From Patescibacteria group bacterium (GTDB lineage: Bacteria; Patescibacteriota; Minisyncoccia; Phycocordibacterales; JBBTRF01): DNA of 64,000 nt. This document shows positions 993-54,847 of this stretch, piece by piece (positions within the stretch are counted from its first letter, which is position 1; every line of letters begins with the position of its first letter). A program made the translations under genes and the position numbers. The stretch spans positions 230,413 to 294,412 of the forward strand of contig JBBTRF010000001.1 of NCBI GenBank assembly GCA_038065315.1. The letters are read 5' to 3'. The notes under the pieces were generated by a model. The model ran no database searches. It saw only the letters and a program-made list of their open reading frames with translations, and was not told where the DNA came from.

Positions 993-2396
993 CTAATTTT
1001 CTATCGCTTTTTCGATGTATTTTGCGTTGAGCCAGAAACATTTCTTCATCTCCTTGGTTCCCTGAGGAGTTTCGACAGTATCGGAAGAATCCTTGCCGTG
1101 CGGGCGGACGTGAACAATGGAGCTATCCTTCATTTTTGGCAGGTCCTCGTATCGCCCCTCATTTATTGCATCAATAGTCTTCTGCCACACCCTCTCTGCC
1201 TCTGACAAGTCTTTCATCGGGAAGTTCCAGAACATAGTCTTTCGCAAAATGATATCGTCAGAGTCTTTCACCTTCTGAAATACAACGAAGAGAAACTTTT
1301 GCGTTTCTAGAAGAGCGTGCAGGTCAGCCATCTCCTCTGTGTCATCATCCTGCCAAACCTGAGTGACCAGGTCCTTATAGTCGAATGCGGGGAATGAAAT
1401 AGACTCACGGAGAGTTCCTGTATGTTCAAGCGTTAGCACCTTGAGAGTCACGTTCGCCTTTTCGAGTTCCTCGATTTTATTTGACTCAACACCAAAAATC
1501 CGGTTCACCAAGATTCGCTTGTAATTCTTTGATTCGCCAACAGACTTCCAACCTAATACTGCTGCTATTTCTTTATCGGTCTTACCGATAAAGGGTGCGA
1601 ATTCCTCATGAACCACAGCTTCGATTGTCTTCGCTTTAACTTTTTTTGCTCGTGCCTTCTCCAACAGTGAGTCCGCCTCCGTTTTGTTCCCCAGGAGATC
1701 TCGTTGAATTAGGTAATTTAGATATTGTTGCTTGAAAGAAAAAGCTCTTGGCTTCGCTGGAATACGTGAAGTCGGCTGATCTCGAAGGATACGGCTATTC
1801 TGTGCCTTAGTACAAGCCCCGAGATAGTACGTATCCCCCTCTGAAAGTAAGTGGGCTTCACCGGCTTTTATCTTTGCGACAATGAACTCCCAATCCCTCT
1901 GGATTTGCAAGATATCGTCAGCGGAAATATCGTTCACATTCAACAAGTCGAGTTGTTTAATGAACTTGAACTCGTGATCAACGATACTCTGTCCTTGCAT
2001 ATGAAGATAGAACATCAGGAGTAAGAACTTGTTTTTCTCTAGAAAAGAACTGCTCCGCCAGACCTCTTTTATCACCTCGTCATAATCAATCATTGAAAAA
2101 ACGAGTCTCTCCTTCGAAGTGTATTTTCTGGTTGGGTGTTTCTTAAGAGGATTGGTCTTTAGCTCGACGCCGGCAAGGTAAAAATCAGCCTCGTTCTTAT
2201 TGTCCGGCTCTTTACCAAAGACATAACGTTGAATGTAAATACCGAGCAACCCCTTCATCTTTGAACCATACCTACTCACTTCCGCCTCGACAGAACCTAT
2301 CTCATTCTTAGGAATAATGGAACGTAGATTCTTCTTGAGTATCTTCTGTGCGGCCGCAAACACCTCTTCCTTGGTCTTGAATTCTGTATTATTCAT
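993..2396 (-). CDS. Type II restriction endonuclease, Sau3AI/MutH family (likely GATC-specific)
   Basis: N-terminal region ...ADFYLAGVELKTNPLKKHPTRKYTSKERLVFSMIDYDEV...SSSFLEKNKF resembles the MutH/Sau3AI catalytic core (D..ExK, GVELKT). It lies 50 nt upstream of the C5-MTase on the same strand, and its 467 aa is close to Sau3AI size. Confidence 0.7.
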   Translation of the reverse strand: MNNTEFKTKEEVFAAAQKILKKNLRSIIPKNEIGSVEAEVSRYGSKMKGLLGIYIQRYVFGKEPDNKNEADFYLAGVELKTNPLKKHPTRKYTSKERLVFSMIDYDEVIKEVWRSSSFLEKNKFLLLMFYLHMQGQSIVDHEFKFIKQLDLLNVNDISADDILQIQRDWEFIVAKIKAGEAHLLSEGDTYYLGACTKAQNSRILRDQPTSRIPAKPRAFSFKQQYLNYLIQRDLLGNKTEADSLLEKARAKKVKAKTIEAVVHEEFAPFIGKTDKEIAAVLGWKSVGESKNYKRILVNRIFGVESNKIEELEKANVTLKVLTLEHTGTLRESISFPAFDYKDLVTQVWQDDDTEEMADLHALLETQKFLFVVFQKVKDSDDIILRKTMFWNFPMKDLSEAERVWQKTIDAINEGRYEDLPKMKDSSIVHVRPHGKDSSDTVETPQGTKEMKKCFWLNAKYIEKAIEN

Positions 2397-3054
2397 CTTG
2401 GTTTATATGATACTTTATTATGCTCAAATATGCATTTTTGGTCACAATAACATGATCAGTGAGATGAATATCAAGTATTTTGCCAGCATGAACAAGCTTC
2501 TTGGTCATTTCAATGTCTTCTCCGGAAGGCTGCGTGACTCCGGAGGGATGGTTGTGAGCCACGATAACACTCGCGGCACGTAAAGTGATGGCTGGTTCAA
2601 ATAATTCACGGGGGTGAGCAAGGCTTGCGTTGAGCGTACCAATCGAGATGACCTGTCTCTCTATTAGACAGTCCTGTGTGTCGAGATAGAAAGCGACGAA
2701 ATGTTCCTTTTTCGAATCTTTTATGTCCGAACAGAGTTTCCAGACATCAGTAGGAGATAGTACTTCCGTTTTCTGAACGGTAAAACGGTCCGTTAGTTCA
2801 AGGATGGATAAAACCTGAGCCGCCTTCGCCTTACCCAATCCCCTAATCGATAAAAGATGCTCGAGGCCAATCTTTTGCTTACCGATCTCGGAGATAAGCT
2901 CCAGTATCTTTTTTGAAAGCTGCAAGACATTCGAACCTTGGATACCGGAACCGAGAACTACAGCAAGAAGCTCTTGATCGGTGAGTCTTTTGACGCCATA
3001 CTTCTGCAATTTCTCACGAGGAAGGTCGACCTTTGGTAGTGACATCATTTTCAT
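2389..3054 (-). CDS. radC: RadC-like JAB/MPN domain protein (UPF0758)
   Basis: N-terminal HhH region (LTDQELLAVVLGSG), JAMM motif HNHPSG and downstream D. The gene overlaps the REase start by 8 nt. Confidence 0.8.
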   Translation of the reverse strand: MKMMSLPKVDLPREKLQKYGVKRLTDQELLAVVLGSGIQGSNVLQLSKKILELISEIGKQKIGLEHLLSIRGLGKAKAAQVLSILELTDRFTVQKTEVLSPTDVWKLCSDIKDSKKEHFVAFYLDTQDCLIERQVISIGTLNASLAHPRELFEPAITLRAASVIVAHNHPSGVTQPSGEDIEMTKKLVHAGKILDIHLTDHVIVTKNAYLSIIKYHINQDE

Positions 3055-3359
3055 ACGTTCAGAAAGTATGTCACTTCCGATACGAAAAAAGAAGCGAAAT
3101 CTTTATTAAGATTTTATCGATTTTTAAACAAGCCTTATTTTCTCTAGCTTTCCCGACAATCTTTTACTCGAAAAATAGCACTCCCGCATTGCGAAAACCC
3201 TCCACCCGAGTCGTCTCAGTGCCTGGATATTTCGTTTATCTCTCTTTATGTTCCTCTCGAACTTTTTCCTCCAAAATGCTTGGTTATGTTTAGGCAGCGG
3301 TAATTTAAACCTCGAACACGCATACCAGAAACAGCCATGGACGAAGACGACAATAACAG

Positions 3360-3587
3360 CTAACCATTCTCTAATTCGAATAGCTGGTCATCACTTAAAT
3401 CAAGTACCCCTCGACAATCCAAAAGTTGCATACGTAGCTCTTCTCGTTTAAGCAATTCTTCCGGGTCAATATGCTGAGGGGTCATCTTTTTCCCAGACAC
3501 ATAATTCCCAACTATAATTCTGGTTTTCTGGTCAAGTTCCAGGTACTCTTTATACAATTCCTCACAACGTGTTTTTTTGTCAGACAT
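3360..3587 (-). CDS. small hypothetical protein (75 aa), co-transcribed with the upstream HEPN-like gene
   Basis: ORF sits 4 nt downstream of the 3592..4254 gene on the same strand in an AT-rich island; no recognisable motif. Confidence 0.3.
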   Translation of the reverse strand: MSDKKTRCEELYKEYLELDQKTRIIVGNYVSGKKMTPQHIDPEELLKREELRMQLLDCRGVLDLSDDQLFELENG

Positions 3588-3591
3588 GTTT

Positions 3592-4254
3592 TTATATTTT
3601 CTCGGAAATATGTTCTATGGCATAGACGACAGCTCTGAACGTTTCAAGATTATCTCGCACTTCCTTTCTTGTTATTGGTCTAACCTTGCCGTGATGCTTA
3701 TTGCCATAGTATACATCATTTCTGTGAACAATTGAGTCTCGGCGTTCTGCCATAGTGGCAACTATCCCTCTAACATCCGCCCTTCTACCCTTCTTTTTCC
3801 TACCCGGCTTTATTGAAAGAAACTTATTAACCTGTTTCCAACCATCATTAATTTCCATCATTGAAAAGGCCATTTGAATTGACTCAGGTTTTTGAAAGGT
3901 AACAGAACCAAGAGACTCTTCTAAAAAATTTATCAATCTTTTGGTCGGATCTTTCTGAATAATCAGATTGGTCAATTCCTTGTAACCATCCTTATCTTTA
4001 AATTTACCCCTTATTCTTTCCACGCACCTTTCCGGAACTCGTTTTTTATGATGAATTATCTTGGTAATAATCTCGATGGTACGTTTATGGATATACGCAT
4101 CCAAAGCGGCGACGGTAAAAACAATTACGGCTCGAAGCAAATCAGCAGTCACCCCCTTGGAGGCAGGTCTTCCAATTGGAAACTTTTCCTCATGAAGCTT
4201 TAGCAGCTCTTCGGAACGCTGTATATTGAGAATGAAAAATTCAATAGCTCTCAT
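3592..4254 (-). CDS. HEPN-like domain protein (Abi/defence-associated), hypothetical
   Basis: Contains an Rx4H-type motif (ERRDSIVHRN) in a predicted helical region; basic 220-aa protein in the AT-rich island next to the R-M genes. Confidence 0.4.
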   Translation of the reverse strand: MRAIEFFILNIQRSEELLKLHEEKFPIGRPASKGVTADLLRAVIVFTVAALDAYIHKRTIEIITKIIHHKKRVPERCVERIRGKFKDKDGYKELTNLIIQKDPTKRLINFLEESLGSVTFQKPESIQMAFSMMEINDGWKQVNKFLSIKPGRKKKGRRADVRGIVATMAERRDSIVHRNDVYYGNKHHGKVRPITRKEVRDNLETFRAVVYAIEHISEKI

Positions 4255-17950: not shown

Positions 17951-20836
17951 CTAGTGGGCCGCCACCCTAGCCAATCGGTTGGCTACTTCCCTCGAACGAG
18001 CTGCAAAGATGCCGCTCCCTTTCGACAATCCGAACGGCTTCAACACCTCATCAGTATGCGCCTCCTGGAAACGGATCAGTGCACGCTGAGTCCTGGCGCC
18101 GAAATATTCCGACTCATTCCCCGACGAACCTGGGCCCTCGGTCGCCAAAAGAAAGCCTTGGCGATTCAACAAACGCTGCAGTTCGAGCACGTCAGGACCA
18201 GTCGCCCCCAGGCGAAGGGTACGACTGAAGCCGGAAAATACTGCTTGTGAGGTCAGCAAAGGTGTCTCCCGAACGGATTTTGAAACAGCGGCCGTGGCAA
18301 GAGGTGTCTGATCATGATATACCACCCTGCCGTCCGGATACACCGTCTGTGCCCGCGGTGCGACATATCCCAACAGCGCGGAAACCGAGCCGGTGAAGAT
18401 CGGACCATTCGCCGCACCGGAAGAGCTGGAAGCTGCCGCAGAAGCCGTCGAGCCAAAGATCGCAAAGTCGGAAAAAGCGGTCGTGCTGCAGGTCACCACT
18501 CGAGAAGTGGTATTGGTGGAACATCCAGACAGCGCATGCCAATCGGAGCCGTCATATCGATAAATGACCAGAGTGGAATCATCAAGACTCGATACATCGG
18601 AAGCAGAATACGAAAGCGAAACCGTGAGCGCCTCAGAGAAAGTCGAGAGCGTAGTGGTCGCATCGATCAAGGCTTTCAAATTAAAAACCTTGTCACCAAC
18701 ACGATTCTTGCCAGAGGGCACGGAGACGTTCAAAAAGAACGCCGTACTATCGAGCTCATGAGCCTGGAAGACGGCCGAGGTCGTCGTGCCACTAAAGGAA
18801 GTCGGCACAGTAAGAGACAGGACTCCTTCTGTCACGGTGCCGCCGGCGGCAGTGGTGATAGCCTGTGATTCACTGGCGGTGATAGAGGCACTAGAGGTAC
18901 AGCCAGTGGTGTAGAAGGTGTCATCTGTAGAAGTCCCGATATTCCCGACGGCATCAGTGCTGGATGCTTGAAAATGATACTGCGTGCAGGCTGTCAGGCT
19001 AGCAAGACTGACAGAATGGCTCGTCACTCGCGGCGACGTGTCCGTCTCGACCGTCGAAGTGCCGTAGCTCGAAGACGGACCAAAGTTCACCATCGAAGAA
19101 GCCGCCTCGTCGGTGGTCCAAGTGATGGTGGCGGTAGTTGTGGCGGTCGAAGTAGCGACTGAGGTCAATACTGGGGCAGCATTGTCGACCGTGAAAGAAA
19201 CGGTGCTCGAGGTGGCGTAATTGCTCGATGTATCACGCGCGACCGCAAAAGCGCTGTGCGCGCCGCTTGTAGTGGCGGTGGAATTCCAAGTAATCCCGTA
19301 GGTCGAAGTGGCATCCTCGCTCCCTTGCAGGGTACCGTCCACGTAGAAGGAGACGCCAGCGAGGGCAATGTTGTCGCTCGCCGTCGCAGTAAGAGATACT
19401 GCACTGCCGCCCACGGTAGCAGCAGCCGAAGGTGCCGTCAGAGACACGCTAGGAGCCGTAACATCAGCAATACCGCCAGCACCGTATTCATACGCACCAA
19501 TATCCGTACTGCCGCTCCTCGTGCCGCCACGCTGGTCGGTGCCGGGAATAGACACTGTGCCATTGGCCGAAGTGTTGCCGGCATCGATCGCCACCGAATC
19601 GCTCGACAAGGCCAAGGTCTGCACACCATTGGATGTGCTATTGTCGGCCAAAGAAGCGCTGAGGCTGAGAGTCGATTGATCGCCAGTGAGGTTACCAGTA
19701 CCGCTCCAGGTCTTGTTGGTACTGTACTCGACCACGTTGTAGCCGTTGTCGGTGATGCGTCCCGCCGAGCCGGACACGACATAGAAGTCGTTCGCTGTAC
19801 TGTTCCCGGTGTTGTTGGCAAGGATGGTGTTTTTCAAAATGAAATTGTAGCCGTCGGTAACCGACTCGAACATCACGCCGCCGGCGCCGGCTGTGGCCGT
19901 ATTGTTGGCGATAGTGCTGTTTGTGACCGTAAATGAGTTTGGATAATACACCTGCAAAGCGCCGGCGTAGGAATTGGTGCTGTTGCCGGAAAAGGTGGAG
20001 TTGGTGATCTTTGTTGTCACAAACCGAAAGACGCCAAGCGCTCCAGACGGCTCGGCATAGCTGTAAGCAAAAGTCGTTGGATTACTACTACTCGCAACAT
20101 TGGCTGAAAAAGTGGATGCGGTGATATTGATCGTGTTGCTCTGGCCTGAATAAATACCGCCGGAACCGTAATATTTTCCGTTGAAGGTGTTGTTTGCGAT
20201 CGTCGAAGTCGAAAGATTGAGAGTGCCGCTGGCGTCGTGTTTCAAAGTGATCGCGCCGGCACCGTAATAATTGGTGGTGGAGTTGTACCAATTGTACGAA
20301 ATGGTCGAATTTTGCACCGTAAGCGTACCGCTCGTAGTGATGCCACCAGCCGTCTCCGTGGCCGTACTCACGCCGTAGCGGATGGTGACGTCTTTAATAA
20401 CCACAGTCTTGCCAGAGCTCACTGTAAACACGCCTCGGTCAGCCGTATTCTCCGAACTCGCTGCCTGGATAAAAGTGACGCCCGCTCCCTGCCCTTGAAT
20501 TGTGAGGCTTTTCCCTAGCGTGTAGCCGGTGCCGGAAGCATCACCCGTCTCACCGGCACTGGTCCAATCGAAAGTACCCGAGAGATTGAGAGTGTCCCCA
20601 GAAGCTGCCGCCACGGTGTACCCTTTGTGGAAAGTCGCGTAGGGCGTACCGGAAGAGCCGTCACCCGTCGTATCGTTGCCGGTCGAGCTGTTGACGTAGT
20701 AGGTTGCCGCAGAGGCCGCCGCCGGGAAAAGAAACATGCAGAGTAAAAAAATACTGGCGAACAGAACGCTACGAGCGCGACTTTGCATACTCCAGGCCAT
20801 GTCGAGATATTGTATCATCTGATGAAACGGCGACAA
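17951..20836 (-). CDS. Large secreted/surface protein: signal peptide, right-handed beta-helix (PbH1-like) repeats, Ig/Fn3-like domains, C-terminal peptidoglycan-binding domain
   Basis: Signal peptide ...LLCMFLFPAAASA; repeated NxT/NNT beta-helix motifs (ISYNW, IANNTFNG, TNSTIANNTA, KNTILANNTG); C-terminus LRLGATGPDVLELQRLLNRQGF...RTQRALIRFQEAH resembles PG_binding_1. Confidence 0.7.
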   Translation of the reverse strand: MSPFHQMIQYLDMAWSMQSRARSVLFASIFLLCMFLFPAAASAATYYVNSSTGNDTTGDGSSGTPYATFHKGYTVAAASGDTLNLSGTFDWTSAGETGDASGTGYTLGKSLTIQGQGAGVTFIQAASSENTADRGVFTVSSGKTVVIKDVTIRYGVSTATETAGGITTSGTLTVQNSTISYNWYNSTTNYYGAGAITLKHDASGTLNLSTSTIANNTFNGKYYGSGGIYSGQSNTINITASTFSANVASSSNPTTFAYSYAEPSGALGVFRFVTTKITNSTFSGNSTNSYAGALQVYYPNSFTVTNSTIANNTATAGAGGVMFESVTDGYNFILKNTILANNTGNSTANDFYVVSGSAGRITDNGYNVVEYSTNKTWSGTGNLTGDQSTLSLSASLADNSTSNGVQTLALSSDSVAIDAGNTSANGTVSIPGTDQRGGTRSGSTDIGAYEYGAGGIADVTAPSVSLTAPSAAATVGGSAVSLTATASDNIALAGVSFYVDGTLQGSEDATSTYGITWNSTATTSGAHSAFAVARDTSSNYATSSTVSFTVDNAAPVLTSVATSTATTTATITWTTDEAASSMVNFGPSSSYGTSTVETDTSPRVTSHSVSLASLTACTQYHFQASSTDAVGNIGTSTDDTFYTTGCTSSASITASESQAITTAAGGTVTEGVLSLTVPTSFSGTTTSAVFQAHELDSTAFFLNVSVPSGKNRVGDKVFNLKALIDATTTLSTFSEALTVSLSYSASDVSSLDDSTLVIYRYDGSDWHALSGCSTNTTSRVVTCSTTAFSDFAIFGSTASAAASSSSGAANGPIFTGSVSALLGYVAPRAQTVYPDGRVVYHDQTPLATAAVSKSVRETPLLTSQAVFSGFSRTLRLGATGPDVLELQRLLNRQGFLLATEGPGSSGNESEYFGARTQRALIRFQEAHTDEVLKPFGLSKGSGIFAARSREVANRLARVAAH

Positions 20837-20917: not shown

Positions 20918-22855
20918 TTAGGCGGGGGCGGAGGCGGAGGCGGTCGGAGCCGCTTTCCTCGCCGCAGTGCCCAATCGGTAGAGGAGCCGCTTTTCTTCGT
21001 CGAGACTCTTGATGAGCTCGGTGAGGATAGCAATCTGCGCCTTGCACTGACCGTTCAGTGACTCCACAGCGATGCGGACTTCTTCCTGAGGCATCTGTCG
21101 CAGGTTGGTCGCTGCTAGACGCAACGCCATCATCCTCCGCTCAAGAGCAGCGGAGTAATCGCTCGGCTTGACCTTCCGTGTCCGCTTGTGGACGACGAAT
21201 TCTTTGCCGAGCATCTTGATCGTCGCTCTGATGAGGCCTCTGGTGGGCTGCTGTTTCGCCTTTTCCCAGATTTCCAACTGCCTTGCCGGGTCGATCCGAG
21301 AGAGCTCGACAGCTTCCGCTAGACGGATGCGGTCGGACTTCGGAGTCGGCGGGTCAAGGAGCGGTTTCAGCTCTGGGACGAGACGCTGCAACGAGTGCAG
21401 ATTGCAGACCGTCACCACGCTTTGGCCGATAGCCGCAGCGATGTTGGTGAGGGACACGCCAACTTCGACCTGGGACGCGATCGCGTTCGAGATCTCCACG
21501 TGCGTGTGGCCTTCGCGGCAGAAGTTCTGGATCAAGGAACCCATATGCTGGTCTGCCTTCGACTTTGGACGAGAAACCGTGATGGCAATATGCGTCGCGC
21601 CAATCATCTCAAGGGCGCGCCAGCGACGTTCGCCGTCGATGAGTTCGAAATCGAACCCATCTTCAGGCGGCGTGAGGCGCTTGACCATGCACGGTGTCCG
21701 CTGACCATGCTTCCGGATGCTCAATCCAAGCTTCTTCAGCTTATCGGGATCAAACCAGACCCGCGGCTGGCCCGGAAAACGAGGGTCGTTCGACGGGGCA
21801 AACGGCCGAACCTTCCCCACCGGCACCACCAATGCTTCAGTGACGTCTGGCGGTGGCGGCACAGAGGTATCAGCCTCTTCGACGGCAGCCCGCTTGATCC
21901 GCCTCTTTCGATACTTGCGTGGCGCCTTCTCCATCATCGCGTTTGGCGGTGCCTTTTCGACAACCGGTTTGGTTTCTGGAGGAGGTGTAGCGACAGGTGC
22001 CGGCATGGGAGCTGGCACTGCGGGTTTGCGCGGCGGCGGAACGGCGGCCGCTGTGGCAATCGGTGGAGCGAGACGCGGGGCGGGCCTGATCGGCACTACC
22101 ACTTCGTCAGGTTCACCCGAAGAACTGCGACCATCCGAGCCTACGCTTCTGTCTGTAACATCAACTTCTTCTGCCCCAGTGACAGTCAGCTCCGGCCTCC
22201 AAACACCACGTTCGGTCGGCTTCTTGACGGCATCGGGCGTGTAGGCACCGAGCCCAACTACCGCCGGATCCGGGACGGCCATCGCATGCGGCATCTGATT
22301 TGCCTGCAAGACGAATCGAGGAGAGAAAACGGGCGGCTCGCAGCCAATGCCTTTGAGCAACCCGAGCTTCGTCACTTCAACTCGCGGATGTCTGTCGCAG
22401 ACATAAAGCCACATGACATGTCCGGAAGACACCAGGAAATAGGTGAGCGATCTGTCGGCACGGAGTGTGTCCGTATCGACGATCTCTCCCTTCTGAACCT
22501 CACGTTCAGGACCGTTGCAAGAAATGACTTGAAATGGCCTCCGACGAAGTGACTCACCTGAGGAAACGACTTCGTGACGGAAGACAAACATGCCGTCTGT
22601 CGGGAAGCCGCTGGCTCCCACGAATCCTGCACTCTGAGACAGGACCTTCCCTCGCTCACCCGCATCATTGCTGATAGCGAGGACGCGGAGTTCAACCGTT
22701 TGCACCGCAGATGCAGAGGTGGCTTTCCCACCCTGCTGTTGGTTTTTCGACTTCATAACTACCTCACTTTCGTGTTGTTCTCGGTGAGAGAAGAGCTTGT
22801 TGGTTGTATTGTCAAGCCTGGCGAAATGATACACGAGCGAGCGACAACATACCAC
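20918..22855 (-). CDS. ParB/Sulfiredoxin-like nuclease-domain protein with a long Pro/Ala-rich N-terminal region (start uncertain)
   Basis: ParB N-domain motif FELIDGERRWRALEMIG with an HTH-like segment downstream; the N-terminal half is a Pro/Ala/Val-rich low-complexity linker; very GC-rich. Confidence 0.5.
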   Translation of the reverse strand: MVCCRSLVYHFARLDNTTNKLFSHREQHESEVVMKSKNQQQGGKATSASAVQTVELRVLAISNDAGERGKVLSQSAGFVGASGFPTDGMFVFRHEVVSSGESLRRRPFQVISCNGPEREVQKGEIVDTDTLRADRSLTYFLVSSGHVMWLYVCDRHPRVEVTKLGLLKGIGCEPPVFSPRFVLQANQMPHAMAVPDPAVVGLGAYTPDAVKKPTERGVWRPELTVTGAEEVDVTDRSVGSDGRSSSGEPDEVVVPIRPAPRLAPPIATAAAVPPPRKPAVPAPMPAPVATPPPETKPVVEKAPPNAMMEKAPRKYRKRRIKRAAVEEADTSVPPPPDVTEALVVPVGKVRPFAPSNDPRFPGQPRVWFDPDKLKKLGLSIRKHGQRTPCMVKRLTPPEDGFDFELIDGERRWRALEMIGATHIAITVSRPKSKADQHMGSLIQNFCREGHTHVEISNAIASQVEVGVSLTNIAAAIGQSVVTVCNLHSLQRLVPELKPLLDPPTPKSDRIRLAEAVELSRIDPARQLEIWEKAKQQPTRGLIRATIKMLGKEFVVHKRTRKVKPSDYSAALERRMMALRLAATNLRQMPQEEVRIAVESLNGQCKAQIAILTELIKSLDEEKRLLYRLGTAARKAAPTASASAPA

Positions 22856-22894: not shown

Positions 22895-23320
22895 CTACTC
22901 CCAGATTCCAAATGGCAGCCCAGCATAATGCACCACGACGTAGAGAAAGATGCTGTAGCCAACAATCGCCACGATGAGTGCGATGAGCGTCGTGTTCACG
23001 ATCTCCTGTCGGCGCTTTTTTACTTCATCGAGTGTGCAGATCCCCTTCTGTTGACGAAAATACAGCACGAGGCTCCATGCGAGGAGGATTAAGCCAACAA
23101 TACGAAAGGCCCAGCGGTAGTCGCCATAAAAGGTATCTGCGAGGGAGGAGGCAAAAGCCGCCGTCGACAAGCCGAAGGCAACAAGGATGAGCGGACTCAA
23201 GCAGCACAAAGACGCTGCCAGCACCGGCAGACCCGTGAGCTTCAAGAGATCTTTCGCTTTCACTCGCCTATTATAACAGATGATAGAATAGACCCATGAA
23301 CAAACAGCGCATCTGGACAA
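22895..23320 (-). CDS. MerT-like small membrane protein (Cys pair in TM1)
   Basis: [19 protein letters not shown] resembles the MerT TM1 CC motif (ASACCLGPLVLIALGFSG); three TM helices and one Cys in the cytoplasmic loop. Divergent from, and overlapping the 5' end of, msrAB. Confidence 0.4.
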
Positions 23321-24489
23321 TTGTTGGTGCAGTCGCGACTATCGCTACCATCGGCGCAGCAGCCCAGTGGGGCTACGGGTGGTACCAAGGTCGTTTTGCA
23401 CCGAGTGTGCTCGATACATCGGCTAAATCGACTGGGCCAACCTTCAGCACTTCACCATTACCAGCGACGACGACCACTGCTCTCGTCTATTTCGCCGGCG
23501 GTTGTTTTTGGTGTGTCGAGAGTGATTTCGAAAAGCTGCCCGGGGTCGTGGAGGTGGTATCGGGCTACACGGGCGGCACCACAGGCATAGACGGTCCGAC
23601 CTACTCCGAGGTCTCGAGGGGTGCGACCGGCCATCGCGAAAGCGTGAAGGTGGAATATGATCCACAAAGACTGACCTATGCTCAGCTGGTATTTTGGCTC
23701 TTGCGTCACAGCGACCCGACCGATGCGACGGGTTCCTTCTACGATCGCGGCCACCAGTACACTTCGGCCGTGTACTACCAAACCGATGTTGAAAAACAGG
23801 CCGCCGAAGAGGTAATCGCAAAGGTGGCTCAACTAAAAATATTTTCGAAACCAGTTGTGACAGCCATCGAACCCGTCAGCGAATTCTGGATCGCCGAAGA
23901 CTATCATCAAGATTTCTACAAGAAAAACACCACTCGCTACGAACACTATCGCCAAGCCTCCGGCCGCGACGCCTTCTATGCATCAATTTGGGGCAGCGGG
24001 AAATACGATCATTTGTTTGACGCCGTGGCGACGTCGCCAGCAAATGGTTGGACCTCATTCACAAAACCCGACGACACAGATCTCCGCGCCAGACTGACCC
24101 CACTCCAATACGAAGTGACCCAGCAGGCTGGCACTGAAAAGCCATTTCAAAACGAATACGATAGCAACAAGCGCGACGGCATCTACGTCGACATTGTCTC
24201 CGGTGAGCCTCTCTACTCTTCGCTCGACAAATACGAATCTGGCACTGGCTGGCCGTCATTCTCCAAGCCGATTTCTCCCGAGGCTGTGACCTTGCACGAA
24301 GTCAACGGCTGGTTCACCAGGCGCACCGAGGTCCGCTCCCGCTATGCCGACTCGCATCTCGGCCACGTCTTCGAGGACGGACCCGCCCCAACCGGCCTCC
24401 GCTACTGCATGAACTCCGCCGCGCTGCGTTTTGTACCCAAGGAAGATTTGGCAAAAGAGGGCTTGGGGGAATACCTGAAGCTGTTCTAA
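23296..24489 (+). CDS. msrAB: Peptide methionine sulfoxide reductase MsrA-MsrB fusion with an N-terminal signal anchor
   Basis: MsrA GCFWC active site; MsrB GWPSF, HLGHVF, RYCMNS; N-terminal TM helix [20 protein letters not shown]. Confidence 0.9.
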
Positions 24490-48539: not shown

Positions 48540-48555
48540 GTTTTATAGAATTAAG

Positions 48556-48627
48556 TACCCTCGGGAGGATTTGAACCTCCGCGTTCTCGCTAGAATCGAG
48601 ACAGTCTATCCATTAGCTTACGAGGGC
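48556..48627 (-). tRNA. tRNA-Arg (anticodon UCU)
   Basis: Manual fold: acceptor GCCCTCG/CGAGGGT (G1:U71), anticodon stem TCTCG/CGAGA with loop ATTCTAG, T-arm GGAGG-TTCAAAT-CCTCC, discriminator A, no encoded CCA. Confidence 0.8.
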
Positions 48628-48719: not shown

Positions 48720-50225
48720 TTATTTCACCCTATTCTCCAGCACCTTCCAGATCTCCACCATTGCCAACGTATCGAGGTGGCAGTAGTCTTCGAGCGCCTG
48801 AATTTTTATTTCCCTCTCTTTTTCAGAATATTCACCGCTCACGATACGATTCCACGTATCGGAAGCCGCGCCACCATCCTGTATGTGCATATCCTTGTAT
48901 GACAAGTGCGGCACCAATGCGGGCAACACATACTTGATCGAAGCACTTCCCTTGAATGCAGGGTGATCATACACCGCAGTCTTACCGGAAAATGGGATCA
49001 TGAGGTCGACCACGCGACTATTCACACTTTCCATGAACGCTTTGTATTCCGGCAGGCGTTCACCAAGCTGTGTATTGATTCCTTTTTCGAATTTCTGATT
49101 CCACACAACAACGCTACCCGTCTTCGGAAGATGCTTCTGCAGCGCTTCAGCAAAATATCTATCAGGACACTCTTGCTCCGTGTAGATAAAATCATAGTGC
49201 GCCATATCATCGCCGTGAGCATTCACGACATGCAGCGAAAACTGAAATGGGACCTGCTGATATGGCCTGTGCTGGTTGTATTTCGGTATCGCCGAAGGAT
49301 ACGTTTCGTAATCCAGAAACGCGAACGGGTATTTCATGGTGTCCAAAAAAGCCACAACACCCTCGCTGTCGATATACTCCCGACCAGACTGTGCGGTGTC
49401 CACCTGCCGTCGCTGAGGATCCGACAATTCAAAGTCCTCGGGCACGTCGTAAATGCTGAGAATGTTGTTGTCCACGAGCTCCGCAAGCTTGTTCTCTCGT
49501 ATTCGCGCGATCGCGTGGACAGGATACTCCGGCAGATCAGCATTGGAATATGCCGAGGTGGTGCAGTGCGCGTTCCAACCCTTGAGAATACAGTCGCAAT
49601 GCCCCGCCGGCTCTTTTTCACTCGCGAGCCGCTCGTATGCGCCATCCATCTTGTGTCTCACCTCCCCAAGCTTTTCATTCACCTGCTCTGTCATATCCTC
49701 AACAATGAACAGCTGCTTGAGATCCAGATCTCCGGCCCGCACGTACTCCTTGTTGAGCCGGATGAGACTGAGCGTACCCATCCTAATACCCAGATCATCC
49801 AAGATATTTTTTTGAAAAGCAATGTCGATTAGATACTCTTCAGTTTTTCGACCCTCACCTCCTCCTTCTGAAGATGTCGAGGATTTCACCTCATATAGGT
49901 CGTATGCGCTCGTGGAGTCATTCCATACCAACATGTCGGAAGCAGTGATGAATTTTTCCGTGGCAAACACCGGCTGATAGATGACGGCGGTTTTGGCGGC
50001 CATGAGCTTTTTGGTCAGCTCGGTATCGTCGCGAAACTCGACCAGCACTCCGCCGGGAAACAACCCTCGCGCCAGCTCGTCGATCTGGTTGCCAGTATCA
50101 ATAATGTTCAACTCAAAAGCCGAGAGCGGGTATTTTTTATATATATCCGGTCGGTGGATTTTCAGCCAGGCGTTCTTAGCGCAATCAAGGCAGGTGAGGA
50201 AGTTGGTTTTTGAGAGTAGGAACAT
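48720..50225 (-). CDS. DUF2779-like protein (PD-(D/E)xK nuclease-like, N-terminal Cys motif)
   Basis: N-terminus LSKTNFLTCLDCAKNAWLKIHRPDIY resembles the DUF2779 / Cas4-N-terminal-like signature (SK..F..G.QC.K..WL). Start is 1 nt after the preceding gene's stop. Confidence 0.5.
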   Translation of the reverse strand: MFLLSKTNFLTCLDCAKNAWLKIHRPDIYKKYPLSAFELNIIDTGNQIDELARGLFPGGVLVEFRDDTELTKKLMAAKTAVIYQPVFATEKFITASDMLVWNDSTSAYDLYEVKSSTSSEGGGEGRKTEEYLIDIAFQKNILDDLGIRMGTLSLIRLNKEYVRAGDLDLKQLFIVEDMTEQVNEKLGEVRHKMDGAYERLASEKEPAGHCDCILKGWNAHCTTSAYSNADLPEYPVHAIARIRENKLAELVDNNILSIYDVPEDFELSDPQRRQVDTAQSGREYIDSEGVVAFLDTMKYPFAFLDYETYPSAIPKYNQHRPYQQVPFQFSLHVVNAHGDDMAHYDFIYTEQECPDRYFAEALQKHLPKTGSVVVWNQKFEKGINTQLGERLPEYKAFMESVNSRVVDLMIPFSGKTAVYDHPAFKGSASIKYVLPALVPHLSYKDMHIQDGGAASDTWNRIVSGEYSEKEREIKIQALEDYCHLDTLAMVEIWKVLENRVK

Positions 50226-50226
50226 A

Positions 50227-50619
50227 TTAAAATAGATGCTTATATTCTCGATAATTCTCCCTCACGATTCTCTGCCACTCAGCCGTTTCGTTGTGACTGG
50301 CGATGTCGGTTTTGCCATAGACGAGTAGCACGCTGACACATTGTTTTTCTTCATGCCACGCCACAATACACCGATTACCCGATGTCCTTGCAGATTCCTT
50401 GGTCCGATCGACTCGAAATTCAGTCTTCACGATCTTAATACCCTCGACATCACAGATCGTCTCAGCCCTGCTGGTAGTGATGAGGAGATCAATACGCTCA
50501 AGCCCAGCAATAATAGCTCTCAGAGTCACTTCCCAATGACCTTTGTACTTCTTCTCAAAACCTTTGATAAAGTGCCTTTCCGCAAAAGGTTCAATTCGTA
50601 CAGAATAGTTTCCCTGCAT
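50227..50619 (-). CDS. Putative toxin, RelE/ParE-superfamily-like (partner of the Panacea antitoxin)
   Basis: C-terminal GNRCIVAWHEEKQCVSVLLVYGKTD resembles the RelE/ParE core G.yRiiY...v.vl.i.hR. Starts 8 nt after the HTH-Panacea gene stop. Confidence 0.35.
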   Translation of the reverse strand: MQGNYSVRIEPFAERHFIKGFEKKYKGHWEVTLRAIIAGLERIDLLITTSRAETICDVEGIKIVKTEFRVDRTKESARTSGNRCIVAWHEEKQCVSVLLVYGKTDIASHNETAEWQRIVRENYREYKHLF

Positions 50620-50626
50620 ACATGTA

Positions 50627-51328
50627 CTAGAAAACCATTTCCGGGTCCTCCTGGGTGATCAGCTCATAGGGAATAATCTCGTCCGGCCGGCAGATAGCAT
50701 ATGGAAGTTGGTTGTGAGTGAAATTCACAATTTCGCCCGTTTTTTTATCTTTCCATTTCTTACCGATCTCTTTCATGAGCTTCACCTCATCGATAGAGAG
50801 GTCGTTGATCTTTTCATTGGTATTGCTCTCCGATTCGCTGATCAAAAACATTTCTTTGCCGTTGTCGGTCTTTCTTTCCACGACGATCTTCCCTGCCTCT
50901 TCGAGCTCATCGATAGCACGGAAAAAAGTGTCTGGTACCGGACCGTATTCAATCCTTCGATACTGCATGCCGCTCATACTTTGCGAATGATCGTAGTACC
51001 AAGCGAAATCAGCGAGATAGAGCAGCTTGGCGAGCTTTGTCTTAGGAATTTTATTGTCGGCCTTGCTGGTAAGATTCATTCTCAAGTAGGTCAAGATCAT
51101 GTGCTTGTACTTGGCAATGTTCGCGATGTTGCCCGACAGAAGCTCGTCGACAGTGATCCCGAGCATCGAGGCTAGCTTTTGTGCTTCTTCTGCGCTCAAT
51201 GTTTGCTTGCCAGACTCAATAGCCGTATAGGTAGGCCGCGACACGCCAATAGCCTTCGCCATCTGCTCTTGCGAAAGATTATTCTTGAGGCGAAACTCCT
51301 TCACCTTTTGCATATACTTGTTGCTCAT
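50627..51328 (-). CDS. HTH(XRE)-Panacea (DUF4065/SocA-like) antitoxin-type protein
   Basis: N-terminal XRE HTH (LSQEQMAKAIGVSRPTYTAIESGKQ); C-terminal KLAKLLYLADFAWYYDHSQSMSGMQYRRIEYGPVPD matches the Panacea/DUF4065 hallmark. Confidence 0.6.
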   Translation of the reverse strand: MSNKYMQKVKEFRLKNNLSQEQMAKAIGVSRPTYTAIESGKQTLSAEEAQKLASMLGITVDELLSGNIANIAKYKHMILTYLRMNLTSKADNKIPKTKLAKLLYLADFAWYYDHSQSMSGMQYRRIEYGPVPDTFFRAIDELEEAGKIVVERKTDNGKEMFLISESESNTNEKINDLSIDEVKLMKEIGKKWKDKKTGEIVNFTHNQLPYAICRPDEIIPYELITQEDPEMVF

Positions 51329-51432
51329 GCATCAAGTATATGCAATGGATGTAAAGAAGTCAAGCAGGTTTGGTGGGTTATTTTACAAGTCTGATACGAA
51401 GAATGCAGTAACGTGATAAAACCGCTCTATAA

Positions 51433-53439
51433 TTATTCTTTTATGACACAAACAACCACACCTTGCACCCCAACCTCTTCATTACTCGTAAACTTCAATG
51501 GTTTGTGTTTTGAATTACTCGATCGAGGTTTTAAGACCACAACACCGCCCTCACGACGATATTCTTTTATAGTTGCATCATCTCCAATAAGTGCCACCAC
51601 ATTGTTCCCCTCTTCTGGATGATAATTTTTTCGACACAGAACTAAATCTCCATCATTAATTCCGACTTGATTCATTGAGTCACCAGAAGTTCTCAAAACG
51701 AAATACTTTGAACCTTTAGACATTAGCTCACTTTTAACAGGAATCATTTCTTGTACGGTAGAATCAGCAAACATAAGCTCTCCGCATCCAACAGAATCAA
51801 ACAAAGGAACGTTTATAAAGCCACTAACATATGGAGATTCTATTGATGTATTATTATCTTTTAGTACTCCTTCACCTGCACTCAAGCTAACATGCTCTTT
51901 AAAGTAATCTCTTAAATTATCGTCAGTAATATAAACGTACGTACCGAGGATTCCTCTTGTTAGCAACGTTTTATAAATATTAATAACATATCTTTTTAAC
52001 TCCTCTGGATCATCTACTCCTCTATGTCCATTTGAATCTAGGTACTTAGTTTTATCGACTACGATCTTTTTACTGATCGGATCATAAGACATTTCAGGGC
52101 CAATTATAACTCCAGCGTAGTTTAGATCGTATCCTTGAATTGTATGGATGCAACCCACTTCATTGATGGCATTAGGAGAATTCACCCAGTCGTGAATTTT
52201 ACTATTCCAAAATAACTTAATATCTCCTATAACAATATCTGGCACTTTTACATCATTTCTTGATACCCACTTCCATGCGTACCCTGCCACTAAGCGAGAC
52301 AGGGTGTGAATTTTTTCTTGTTTTTTGATATCAATTACCATTTGCCCCAGATCACTGTAAACTTTAAAATCATATTCCGAAAAATCAGCTCTCGTGCTCA
52401 CCTTACTTTCCATTAAGTGATCGATGAAATCAAGGTATTCTCGTCCTCCTCTTACACGCATCTGTGTCTTAAGTTCAAAACTTATTGGATTGGATTCTAA
52501 AACCTTCCGCATCGAAATATCAGAAGGCCTCACAGATTGTCTTTCGTCATAAAAGAGTACGACGTGGCTCGCTGATTTTAGTATCCAATCGAGTTCTGTC
52601 CCCTCATTCCCCAAGCCAAAACTTTTATTGGTTGTATCAAATGTCCCGTAGTTTGGAATATTCCTTCTTTGATGTAGACGATGTGTTTCATCGACGATCA
52701 AAATGTCGTATTTCTGATTCGCGACCTCGTTTGGACCAATTACCATGTTTGGACTTAGGCCTGGAATACTTCTAAATACTTTCTTTAGCGTCTTTCTTAA
52801 AGAAACCATAGCAATTACCAGCGCAATGTCTTTTCTACCTTCCTGAACCAACTGCTTAACTAAGTAAGTAGCTAAAATAGTCTTGCCAGTACCTGGCCCG
52901 CCATGAATAATATAGGACTGTCTCTTATCCCCTCTAAAATATTCTAGTAGCTTTGAAGCAATCAAGTATTGATCGTCTGTGAGAGTTTTATATGGAGAAT
53001 ACTTAAAAAGATCGCTATTGCGAATTTGCAGCAGGTCATTCCTTGCAATCTTTAATTCTTGTAGTTTTTTCCACAATAACTCAAACTTCCCTCGATATCG
53101 TTCACGGTCAAAATAATCATGATTTTGCAAACCTCCGTTTCCGTTCTGAAGAATATACTTACCGTCGGCCACCAAATACTCAATCAATGAAGATTCCGTG
53201 TCGAGAGTCGCTGATTTATTAAATTCGTCGTCAGAAATAACGTGAATGGTCTTTAATTGCTTCCGGGCCCCATTCTCTAAATGCTGCTTCGTTCTAGCAT
53301 AAGCTCTAATTGTTTCTCCAACATAGAGTTCTTTTCCGTTTTCTATTAGATAAACAACTGGCCAATCACTACCGTACTTATAGTTACGTATTTTCTCTAC
53401 GCCAGATGAACTGAATGGAAATTTTACTATTTCTGACAT
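51433..53439 (-). CDS. Three-domain fusion: N-terminal GIY-YIG nuclease + P-loop ATPase (DUF2075-like) + C-terminal LexA/UmuD-like S24 peptidase domain
   Basis: GIY-YIG: VVYLIENGKELYVGETIRAYARTKQH with downstream conserved E (DTESSLIEY) and N (QNGNGG). ATPase: Walker A HGGPGTGKT, Walker B ILIVDETHRL, VLFYDERQ. S24: GDSMNQVGINDGDLVLC...VVALIGDDATIKEYRREGGVVVLKPRSSN (Ser nucleophile in GDSM, Lys in TIKEY; compare LexA GDSM...TVKRL). Confidence 0.7.
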   Translation of the reverse strand: MSEIVKFPFSSSGVEKIRNYKYGSDWPVVYLIENGKELYVGETIRAYARTKQHLENGARKQLKTIHVISDDEFNKSATLDTESSLIEYLVADGKYILQNGNGGLQNHDYFDRERYRGKFELLWKKLQELKIARNDLLQIRNSDLFKYSPYKTLTDDQYLIASKLLEYFRGDKRQSYIIHGGPGTGKTILATYLVKQLVQEGRKDIALVIAMVSLRKTLKKVFRSIPGLSPNMVIGPNEVANQKYDILIVDETHRLHQRRNIPNYGTFDTTNKSFGLGNEGTELDWILKSASHVVLFYDERQSVRPSDISMRKVLESNPISFELKTQMRVRGGREYLDFIDHLMESKVSTRADFSEYDFKVYSDLGQMVIDIKKQEKIHTLSRLVAGYAWKWVSRNDVKVPDIVIGDIKLFWNSKIHDWVNSPNAINEVGCIHTIQGYDLNYAGVIIGPEMSYDPISKKIVVDKTKYLDSNGHRGVDDPEELKRYVINIYKTLLTRGILGTYVYITDDNLRDYFKEHVSLSAGEGVLKDNNTSIESPYVSGFINVPLFDSVGCGELMFADSTVQEMIPVKSELMSKGSKYFVLRTSGDSMNQVGINDGDLVLCRKNYHPEEGNNVVALIGDDATIKEYRREGGVVVLKPRSSNSKHKPLKFTSNEEVGVQGVVVCVIKE

Positions 53440-53442
53440 ATT

Positions 53443-53790
53443 CTAAAGTTTATTATACTTAGTATGTTTTCCTTTAGCTTTCTCAACCGGATATTTTTCT
53501 TCATTAACTCTAATTTTCTTTTCAAGTGCATTTAGTACATCGATATTTAAATCGTGACTCATGAGTAGAACCCAGTACAAAACGTCTGCCAATTCTTCTC
53601 CTATAGCGACTTTGTTTTCTTTTACATATTTTTCCATCTCTTCCTTATTTTTCCACTGAAAATGTTCCATTACTTCACCAGCCTCCAAAACAAGAGAAAG
53701 GGCGACATCTTTAGGATTGTGGAATTGCTTCCAATCTCTTGCGTCACGAAAAGCAATTATTCTCTTTGTTAGATCGATAATGTTTTTCAT
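53443..53790 (-). CDS. MazG-like nucleotide pyrophosphohydrolase (all-alpha NTP-PPase)
   Basis: LVLEAGEVMEHFQW...IGEELADVLYWVLLMSHDLNIDV: EExxE/D metal-binding helices of the MazG/HisE fold. Start refined to MKNIIDL (ATG at 53790); 3-nt gap to the downstream gene. Confidence 0.55.
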   Translation of the reverse strand: MKNIIDLTKRIIAFRDARDWKQFHNPKDVALSLVLEAGEVMEHFQWKNKEEMEKYVKENKVAIGEELADVLYWVLLMSHDLNIDVLNALEKKIRVNEEKYPVEKAKGKHTKYNKL

Positions 53791-53794
53791 ATAT

Positions 53795-54847
53795 TTATTT
53801 CTCATTATTCCCCTCCCCCACCCTCTTCTCAACCCTTTTCTGCACGCCAACCATAGCATCCAAGTACGCTTTTTCGACATCGCTCAGTGTCTTTTGTTGA
53901 TATTTCCGGTACTCGACAGTGGCTTTATCCACCGCCTGCTCATGACTCACCGCTCCTGCGCCGGACAACAACTGTTCGCCAGTGGAAGCGAGTATCCCAT
54001 CGAGGTGCTTCGCCCAGTCTACCATTTTCATCGGAATCTCCCGCTCAGCTTGACGCTCGGCGAAGTCGAGATATCCGGAAACAATCTGCCCGAGTGCGCG
54101 CAGCTCTTTCTCATTCAAATAATTCTTAGCGATCGCCACATCCTTGAGTTGCGGTTTCGAGCCAGCAAAGGTCGTCAGGCCCATAAAATCCTTTTCGGCA
54201 TCAGCTCGGCTATAAATAACTTCCGCTGCCGTCTGCCCATGCACGGCGCAGTGGACTTTATTTTGGATCTTTTTGAAAAATTCTATAGAGGTCTCGGCTC
54301 GGGCATCATAGTCGATGCTCGTAGCGTAGATATCCAAAATTTGGCGATAAAATACTTTCTCGCTGCTGCGAATGTCGCGGATGCGAGCCAGGAGCTCTTT
54401 CCAATATCCACCGCCACCGAGATCCTTCAGACGTTCGTCGTCCATTGCAAAACCTTTGACGATATACTCCCTAAGCCGTGCTGTGGCCCACTGGCGAAAA
54501 TGTGTGCCCTGTACGGAATTTACGCGGTACCCAACCGATATAACGACATCCAAATTGTAGTGCCTCACTGATACTTCTTGCGTTTTTCCCTTTATAGCGC
54601 CGTGTTCTGTGGTTCGTCGGAATTCCCGACATACCACCCTCTCATCCAATTCACCCTCTCTAAAGATATTAAGTATGTGCTCTGCGATAGTTGAACGGCC
54701 TTTATTGAATAGTTCGGCAAGCTGATCCTGATTAAGCCACACCGTCTCGCCCTGCATGCGCACCTCAAGACGAGGCTTGCCCTCGGTGCCTTCGTAAATA
54801 ATTATTCCATTGTTTGGTGGATTGTCTTGCATATCAGCGCCTCCCAT
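53795..54847 (-). CDS. RhuM-family protein (Virulence_RhuM domain)
   Basis: HYNLDVVISVGYRVNSVQGTHFRQWATARLREYIVKGF and IQNKVHCAVHGQTAAEVIYSRADAEKDFMGLTTF are characteristic RhuM-family blocks; 4-nt gap to the MazG-like gene. Confidence 0.55.
   Translation of the reverse strand: MGGADMQDNPPNNGIIIYEGTEGKPRLEVRMQGETVWLNQDQLAELFNKGRSTIAEHILNIFREGELDERVVCREFRRTTEHGAIKGKTQEVSVRHYNLDVVISVGYRVNSVQGTHFRQWATARLREYIVKGFAMDDERLKDLGGGGYWKELLARIRDIRSSEKVFYRQILDIYATSIDYDARAETSIEFFKKIQNKVHCAVHGQTAAEVIYSRADAEKDFMGLTTFAGSKPQLKDVAIAKNYLNEKELRALGQIVSGYLDFAERQAEREIPMKMVDWAKHLDGILASTGEQLLSGAGAVSHEQAVDKATVEYRKYQQKTLSDVEKAYLDAMVGVQKRVEKRVGEGNNEK

Follow-up and report, generated by a model that had tools for sequence, protein, structure and literature searches.

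Turnover of methionine sulfoxide reductases (Msr) leaves a disulfide or a sulfenate that needs reduction. To our knowledge, all characterised extracytoplasmic Msr systems receive their electrons either via DsbD/CcdA together with a thioredoxin-fold protein or, in the case of the molybdoenzyme MsrP, via MsrQ. In Streptococcus pneumoniae the surface enzyme MsrAB2 is supplied along the route CcdA1/2-Etrx1/2-MsrAB2 (PMC3914529), DsbD/CcdA and thioredoxin-fold proteins also supply exported Msr in S. gordonii (PMC7034828) and F. nucleatum (PMC9239216), and the Msr partner table of a 2026 review (PMC13488963) lists DsbD/CcdA and thioredoxin (Trx) only. Here, a stretch of 64,000 nucleotides from a Patescibacteria group bacterium (contig JBBTRF010000001.1, positions 230,413 to 294,412; hereafter the window, by whose own numbering all positions are given) was found to carry, back to back, a gene for a small membrane protein resembling the mercury transporter MerT and an msrAB gene encoding an MsrA-MsrB fusion. 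We propose, with belief and doubt evenly balanced, that the membrane protein is a thiol relay built on a MerT scaffold, which would bring reducing equivalents from the cytoplasm to the extracytoplasmic MsrAB. On this reading the two genes would together form a module by which this bacterium of the candidate phyla radiation (CPR) repairs extracytoplasmic oxidised methionines.

The MerT-like gene lies on the minus strand at 22895-23263 (GTG start codon at 23263, stop codon at 22895-22897) and encodes 122 amino acids, and msrAB (397 amino acids) lies on the plus strand at 23296-24489. An earlier note on this DNA had rightly described the two genes as divergently transcribed, and had given the membrane protein 141 amino acids and an overlap with the 5' end of msrAB. 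That longer version (22895-23320, minus strand, TTG start) is merely the longest open reading frame (ORF) possible. A deposited NCBI protein matches the 122-residue product with 100% identity (P0001, 'mercuric transporter MerT family protein [Patescibacteria group bacterium]'), and both the start MK.K[ED]L and a size of about 121-130 amino acids recur in all of the best 120 of 345 homologues. With the start at GTG 23263, the genes therefore do not overlap, and their start codons are separated by a divergent control region of 32 nt (23264-23295).

The membrane protein matches the Pfam family MerT (PF02411) over profile positions 14-111 of 116; at 34.9 bits (E=1.8e-8) it exceeds the gathering score of 32.9. 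When aligned with hhalign to a Tn21-type MerT from a genuine mer operon (L085), it reached a probability of 93.9, its first transmembrane helix (TM1) being 42% identical over 52 columns and its ASLCCLSPL pairing with ASACCLGPL of MerT. The close likeness to MerT TM1 with its vicinal Cys pair, which the earlier note had read from the letters, is thus borne out by profile comparison. No CcdA/DsbD model matched, DsbD_TM and DsbD_2 giving nothing even at E<=10. With the NCBIfam equivalogs NF010314, NF033560 and NF033556 (MerT, RC607-MerT and MerTP), whose cut-offs are 150, 130 and 180 bits, it scored only 34.0, 30.4 and 24.2. We therefore place the protein in the MerT superfamily but not among the MerT orthologs. 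A search over 5.8 billion proteins returned 345 relatives, the best 120 of which are 62-100% identical, and a scan of 1.84 billion cluster representatives with a hidden Markov model (HMM) of the family gave 314 matches at E<=0.001, only 7 of them at E<=1e-30. The family is compact and so far seen only in Patescibacteria, with roughly 222 genomes carrying it, where source names and titles of 80 species-level loci include Paceibacteria, Kaiser-, Moran-, Uhr-, Andersen-, Magasanik-, Jackson-, Azam-, Lloyd-, Taylor- and Peregrinibacteria. In databases its members are labelled as mercury transporter family members or as 'hypothetical'.

Among 29 diverse members, the invariant residues include C20, C21, P24, C76, H112, D43, Y46, Y49 and W51. 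The vicinal pair Cys20-Cys21 (codons 23201-23206, minus strand), which lies in the middle of TM1 and is invariant in three family alignments, aligns with the canonical CC of MerT. Cys76 (23036-23038, minus strand; ICT) falls in the loop that joins TM2 to TM3, which is strongly basic, and aligns with the second Cys of the cytoplasmic pair of MerT (ACKPGEVCA), the first having gone through a 5-residue deletion. His112 (22928-22930, minus strand; VVVHY), near the outer end of TM3, is fully conserved in the core family, more distant relatives having Glu instead. Counts of Lys plus Arg in a positive-inside analysis are 3.0 for the N-terminus, 1.0 for loop 1, 7.1 for loop 2 and 0.2 for the C-terminus. 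From these counts and from hydropathy we predict three TM helices with the N-terminus inside and the C-terminus outside, an orientation supported independently by the C-terminal fusions to exported enzymes described below. In this predicted topology the CC pair would sit mid-membrane and the third invariant Cys on a cytoplasmic loop, which answers the question of where the Cys residues face. The AlphaFold2 (AF2) model has helices at 12-21/24-45, 47-71 and 85-115, with a mean predicted local distance difference test score (pLDDT) of 66.6 for the protein alone; for a natural fusion it is 71.6 overall and below 60 in the TM domain. A Foldseek search of the model against the PDB returned only noise (best E=5), and a profile search of PDB sequences for the family found no match.

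The plus-strand partner matches Pfam PMSR (E=7e-54) and SelR (E=3e-46) and scores above cut-off with the NCBIfam models of the MsrA and MsrB domains, in agreement with its first identification as an MsrA-MsrB fusion. It comprises a putative signal or anchor segment at about residues 6-24, MsrA at 64-217 and MsrB at 267-381. Its N-terminus reads MNKQR followed by an 18-residue hydrophobic stretch, a basic-then-hydrophobic pattern in an enzyme that the earlier note had called signal-anchored, and in its homologues this position is taken either by an N-terminus of similar kind or by a MerT-like domain. The hydrophobic segment suggests a putatively exported or membrane-anchored enzyme. The MsrA active site is GCFWC (23503-23514, plus strand), with Cys70 catalytic and Cys73 likely resolving, and this motif is present in 38/38 linked MsrA domains. 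In MsrB, the catalytic Cys371 (RYCMNS; 24406-24408, plus strand) is the sole Cys of the domain, since the usual resolving Cys is replaced by Thr (SGTGWPSF) and the Zn CxxC pair is absent.

To survey linkage, 80 species-level loci of the MerT-like gene were searched by tblastn with the MsrA and MsrB domains of the window. As a result, msrAB or msrB/msrA was found directly adjoining the MerT-like gene in 47 of the 80 loci, or 47 of the 74 with at least 1.5 kb on both flanks. By orientation, the genes are divergent in 16 of these, ordered mert->msr in 18 and msr->mert in 12, and convergent in 1. The partner is msrAB in 17 mert->msrAB, 14 divergent, 8 msrAB->mert and 1 convergent loci, a stand-alone anchored MsrB in 6 loci, which are complete pairs, and MsrA only in 1 locus (L005), where the contig ends. 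These genomes have roughly 1000 genes and usually one msrAB, so that adjacency by chance is expected in well under 1% of genomes. The pairing of MerT-like and msr genes is far beyond chance. Linkage to exported msrAB is strongly conserved across other genomes too, in four arrangements and, in addition, as fusions.

The stand-alone MsrB partners bear on one alternative, in which the MerT-like protein would be a subunit dedicated to the 1-Cys MsrB: its CC pair would supply the resolving thiol that this enzyme lacks for its sulfenate, and CcdA-Trx or a low-molecular-weight thiol would reduce the resulting disulfide. Consistent with this, SGTGWPSF occurs in 45/45 linked MsrB domains, none of which has a resolving Cys, the MerT-like gene directly follows the MsrB-coding end in the msr->mert operons, and the only MsrA-only case is cut by a contig end. 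The same motif, however, is present in 117/120 related Patescibacteria MsrABs, fused or not; it is thus clade-wide and does not track the MerT-like partner, and for this reason we do not use it as an argument. The idea also leaves the invariant cytoplasmic Cys76 unexplained. We consider it improbable as a separate explanation, and it overlaps with the relay reading rather than excluding it.

Moreover, the two partners occur as one protein. Four loci (L010, L011, L014 and L028) encode in-frame MerT-like-linker-MsrA-MsrB proteins of 421-440 amino acids, and a search with one of them gave 21 clusters, at the 90% identity level, of full-length fusions with 421-502 amino acids that are 56-100% identical. 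C20, C21, C76, H112, GCFWC and the MsrB Cys are invariant across 19 aligned fusions. The MerT-like domain stands in for the single N-terminal TM anchor, and from the end of TM3 it is only about 20-35 residues to the active site of MsrA. A GIGT signature is common to all of the fusions, suggesting that they probably stem from one old fusion event. A close relative (P0251), which scores 117 bits with the family profile and occurs in independent samples on 7 contigs, joins a MerT-like domain to a C-terminal thioredoxin (WCPTC); the neighbours of the subclade around it (P0392, P0394) were uninformative. More distant relatives are MerT-HMA (MerTP-type) fusions, with E of about 1e-8 to 1e-10 against the family profile.

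Related Patescibacteria MsrABs carry one of several N-terminal modules: some have no more than an anchor, and others a MerT-like domain, a PilB-type Redoxin domain (P0212) or DM13. At the N-terminus of MsrAB, the MerT-like domain occupies the site of the immediate electron donor in PilB-type enzymes. DM13 ('electron transfer') precedes MsrA-MsrB in proteins of 530-545 amino acids (P0164, P0191, P0194, P0200, P0207, P0211, P0224 and P0240) and is also encoded by neighbour genes in 3 Msr loci; this domain, too, may feed electrons into exported Msr, as a module so far uncharacterised. Two further architectures were seen. At L024 (6001-7047, plus strand), a MerT-like domain in which H112 is Glu is followed by a C-terminal alpha/beta-hydrolase (Hydrolase_4/Abhydrolase_1) with no obvious link to thiol redox. 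P0256 (598 amino acids) is a large polytopic membrane protein with no Pfam match, in which a MerT-like domain (CC, loop Cys and VVHH) at 448-568 is followed by an extra TM helix with another CC.

Neighbouring genes were examined by Pfam scans of two genes on each side of the MerT-like gene, covering 258 neighbour ORFs in the 80 loci. Loci that lack Msr most often have neighbours of the families DsbD_TM/CcdA (6), pyridine-nucleotide disulfide oxidoreductases (4), AhpC/TSA-Redoxin (3) and thioredoxin (3), followed by glutaredoxin (2), DsbA-like (2) and DUF3179 (2) proteins. The remaining neighbours in Msr loci include 4-5 CcdA-Redoxin fusions and the 3 DM13 proteins. No merA, merP or merR was found in the window or among these neighbour ORFs, in contrast to the real mer operon L085, and the only HMA domains among the neighbours are in two P-type ATPases, both in Msr loci. 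Of the recurrent neighbour clusters at first suspected to be MerA-like, c23 is a CCA-adding enzyme and c2 consists of ABC-F ATPases, and a 482-residue flavoprotein at L056, the only one with CxxxxC in a motif search, lacks the C-terminal CC of MerA.

These neighbourhoods bear on the possibility that the protein is a genuine MerT-type transporter of thiophilic metals (Hg(II), Cu(I), Ag or Cd), linked to Msr through a shared stress regulon, with metal-catalysed oxidation damaging envelope methionines. The Pfam match above threshold speaks for such a transporter, as do the CC-x2-P of TM1, which is the metal-binding motif of MerT, the distant MerT-HMA relatives and the HMA-containing ATPases near two Msr loci. 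Against it stand the lack of mer genes or a chaperone partner in the window and the scanned neighbours, the equivalog scores of 24-34 bits against cut-offs of 130-180 and the loss of half of the cytoplasmic Cys pair. Importing a toxic metal without a cytoplasmic reductase would also be senseless, and the in-frame joining of the domain to MsrAB or Trx indicates that the partners cooperate physically and directly. A metal transporter is therefore quite unlikely.

Some neighbourhoods hold further thiol-redox genes. CcdA is fused to DUF3179 with an FCPLC motif at L058 (4325-6004, plus strand), and a stand-alone DUF3179 gene lies immediately downstream of the MerT-like gene at L062 (607-1599, plus strand); a role as partner or client in thiol redox outside the cytoplasm is possible for DUF3179. 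At L030 and L038, the MerT-like gene stands beside a DsbA-type gene instead of Msr, in the order FMN_red (NADPH-dependent FMN reductase), CcdA (L030 only), MerT-like, DsbA-like and PCC domain.

We therefore return to the relay reading, which rests on MerT homology, three invariant Cys residues, the predicted topology, linkage and fusion with Msr, and thiol-redox neighbours. In the proposed mechanism, cytoplasmic thioredoxin would reduce a disulfide involving Cys76 on the cytoplasmic loop, thiol-disulfide exchange would move the equivalents to the mid-membrane Cys20-Cys21 pair of TM1, and this pair would in turn, at the outer face, reduce the oxidised CFWC disulfide of MsrA, the sulfenate of the 1-Cys MsrB, or both. 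The relay would reuse the Cys positions by which MerT hands over Hg(II), the cargo being a disulfide and not a metal. We infer the coupling by electron or thiol transfer, its direction, the crossing of the membrane and thioredoxin as donor, and the relay as a whole is a well-supported functional prediction of a purely computational kind.

Several observations weigh against the relay. Being strained and normally oxidising, a vicinal disulfide is an awkward carrier of reductant. No Msr neighbour is present in 27 loci with full flanks. In about 10/80 loci, CcdA or CcdA-Trx is encoded no more than two genes away from the MerT-like gene, and at L061, L065, L069, L075 and L079 a CcdA-Trx fusion, MsrAB and the MerT-like protein are encoded in one operon, indicating that the canonical conduit can coexist with the MerT-like protein, which is then not simply a substitute for CcdA. 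The hydrolase fusion at L024 suggests that the domain can also be used as a plain anchor. In addition, the low AF2 confidence of the TM domain places Cys-Cys distances and docking beyond assessment.

Part of this evidence would fit an adaptor or anchor at the outer face, which docks or tethers MsrAB, or replaces an Etrx-type thioredoxin as the last step, while CcdA encoded elsewhere crosses the membrane. Besides the five operons above, CcdA is adjacent to the MerT-like gene at L030, L033, L056, L058 and L060, the domain sits in the fusions where a simple TM anchor would, the L024 protein looks like a case of anchoring, and outer loop 1 is highly conserved (L41, D43, Y46, Y49 and W51), as expected of a docking surface. 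A pure anchor, however, would not need three invariant Cys residues, least of all one on the cytoplasmic loop, and unfused MsrABs already have an anchor of their own. An adjacent CcdA/DsbD with a thioredoxin-fold partner is found in about 5/47 Msr-linked loci, and about 42/47 have neither CcdA nor Trx nearby. In the 64-kb window, no such pair stands beside the two genes by tblastn or Pfam, and tblastn queries with CcdA, DsbA-like, Grx-like, DUF3179 and E. coli TrxA found no match anywhere. We regard the adaptor as unlikely, though more probable than the other alternatives. For the suggestion in the earlier note that a MerT-fold protein supplies the reductant, homology, linkage and topology thus hold, while the role itself is still one that we infer and is not simply that of a CcdA replacement.

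A broader claim would be that the MerT-like family constitutes a class of conduit for reductant that has gone unrecognised and is so far confined to CPR bacteria, passing thiol-disulfide equivalents across the membrane, in which a 3-TM MerT scaffold with a CC pair and one cytoplasmic Cys works independently of DsbD/CcdA and reduces extracytoplasmic MsrA and 1-Cys MsrB directly, without a Trx-fold intermediary. We advance this only tentatively and with some doubt. If true, the conduit would show that the mercury relay of MerT and a disulfide relay are evolutionarily interchangeable.

The spacer between the two genes has its own regularities. TATAAT is found at 23275-23270 on the minus strand, 6 nt upstream of the MerT-like GTG, and TGATAGAAT at 23281-23289 on the plus strand, 6 nt upstream of the msrAB ATG, and the same geometry of hexamer and start codon recurs in the divergent loci L001-L009. 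More generally, in the divergent spacers of the window, L001-L009, L026 and L072, the mert and msrAB start codons are 12-100 nt apart, with a -10-like hexamer, often TGnTAnAAT, 5-7 nt before each. A strict scan for sigma-70 -35/-10 promoters gave no match, the -10-like hexamers being seen only by eye and by cross-locus comparison, and because of this the promoter assignment is put as a probability: the spacer probably holds back-to-back promoters without recognisable -35 boxes, and both mRNAs would be leaderless.

Other nearby genes of the window are unrelated, encoding ParB-like, sugar-phosphate isomerase/AP-endonuclease-fold, cold-shock, DUF817 and alpha/beta hydrolase proteins and a large Big_7/PG-binding surface protein. 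The gene directly downstream of the MerT-like one, likewise on the minus strand (20918-22855), encodes a 645-residue protein with ParB_N at residues 361-444 only, whose long N-terminal region, partly rich in Pro and Ala, has no family match. Another gene encodes a 961-residue secreted or surface protein (17951-20836, minus strand) with a Big_7 Ig-like domain, a C-terminal peptidoglycan-binding domain and the long Ser/Thr/Ala-rich runs typical of CPR surface proteins. GC content falls to 0.39-0.43 at 2001-4000 and 50001-54000, compared with about 0.52-0.57 elsewhere, and a tRNA-Arg gene (48555-48627) is close to a low-GC stretch; these stretches may have been horizontally acquired.

In terms of novelty, a full-text literature search found no paper linking MerT-family proteins to Msr, DsbD, a thiol-disulfide relay or envelope redox in CPR bacteria. 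Membrane supply of reductant to exported Msr is already known as a kind, and the MerT scaffold and the fusion architecture are not. If the relay is true, a second, unrelated and much smaller membrane scaffold would widen the known routes by which bacteria export reducing power, and a function would be assigned to a family annotated as mercury transporter in hundreds of Patescibacteria genomes. Patescibacteria are ultra-small, largely uncultured bacteria with few known defences, and the relay would show how they guard surface proteins against oxidation.

In comparison with known systems, the protein resembles MerT of the Tn21/Tn501 type (PF02411) in its length of about 120 amino acids, its three predicted TM helices with the N-terminus inside, the A-S-x-C-C-L-x-P-L of TM1 and the one cytoplasmic-loop Cys that matches the second loop Cys of MerT, and the proposed hand-over of cargo from Cys to Cys is analogous. 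It differs from MerT in having one cytoplasmic Cys instead of two, and its longer basic loop, conserved outer loop and TM3 His/Glu are missing from MerT; its genes also lack a merR-merP-merA context, and its partners are MsrAB, Trx and CcdA instead of MerP and MerA. The MerTP/MerT-HMA proteins, which are more distant relatives, likewise join a MerT-family TM domain to an extracytoplasmic C-terminal partner, an architecture that confirms the outward-facing C-terminus, although that partner is a metal-binding HMA domain. As in the Trx-MsrA-MsrB protein PilB of Neisseria, a donor module precedes MsrA-MsrB in the MerT-like fusions, but it is an integral membrane domain, whereas that of PilB is a soluble thioredoxin fold; Patescibacteria have a PilB-like Redoxin-MsrA-MsrB as well (P0212). 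The MerT-like-Trx fusion recalls the beta-gamma architecture of DsbD, in which the conduit is fused to its acceptor. CcdA/DsbD, for their part, have 6 TM helices and two PC-motif Cys residues, compared with 3 TM helices, a CC pair and one Cys in the MerT-like protein, and no thioredoxin-fold intermediary like that of CcdA-Etrx-MsrAB was found in the 64-kb window. With CcdA-Etrx-MsrAB the pair nevertheless shares an MsrAB, here putatively anchored or exported, encoded beside a small Cys-bearing integral membrane protein, the same need of a cytoplasmic reductant and the same proposed function.

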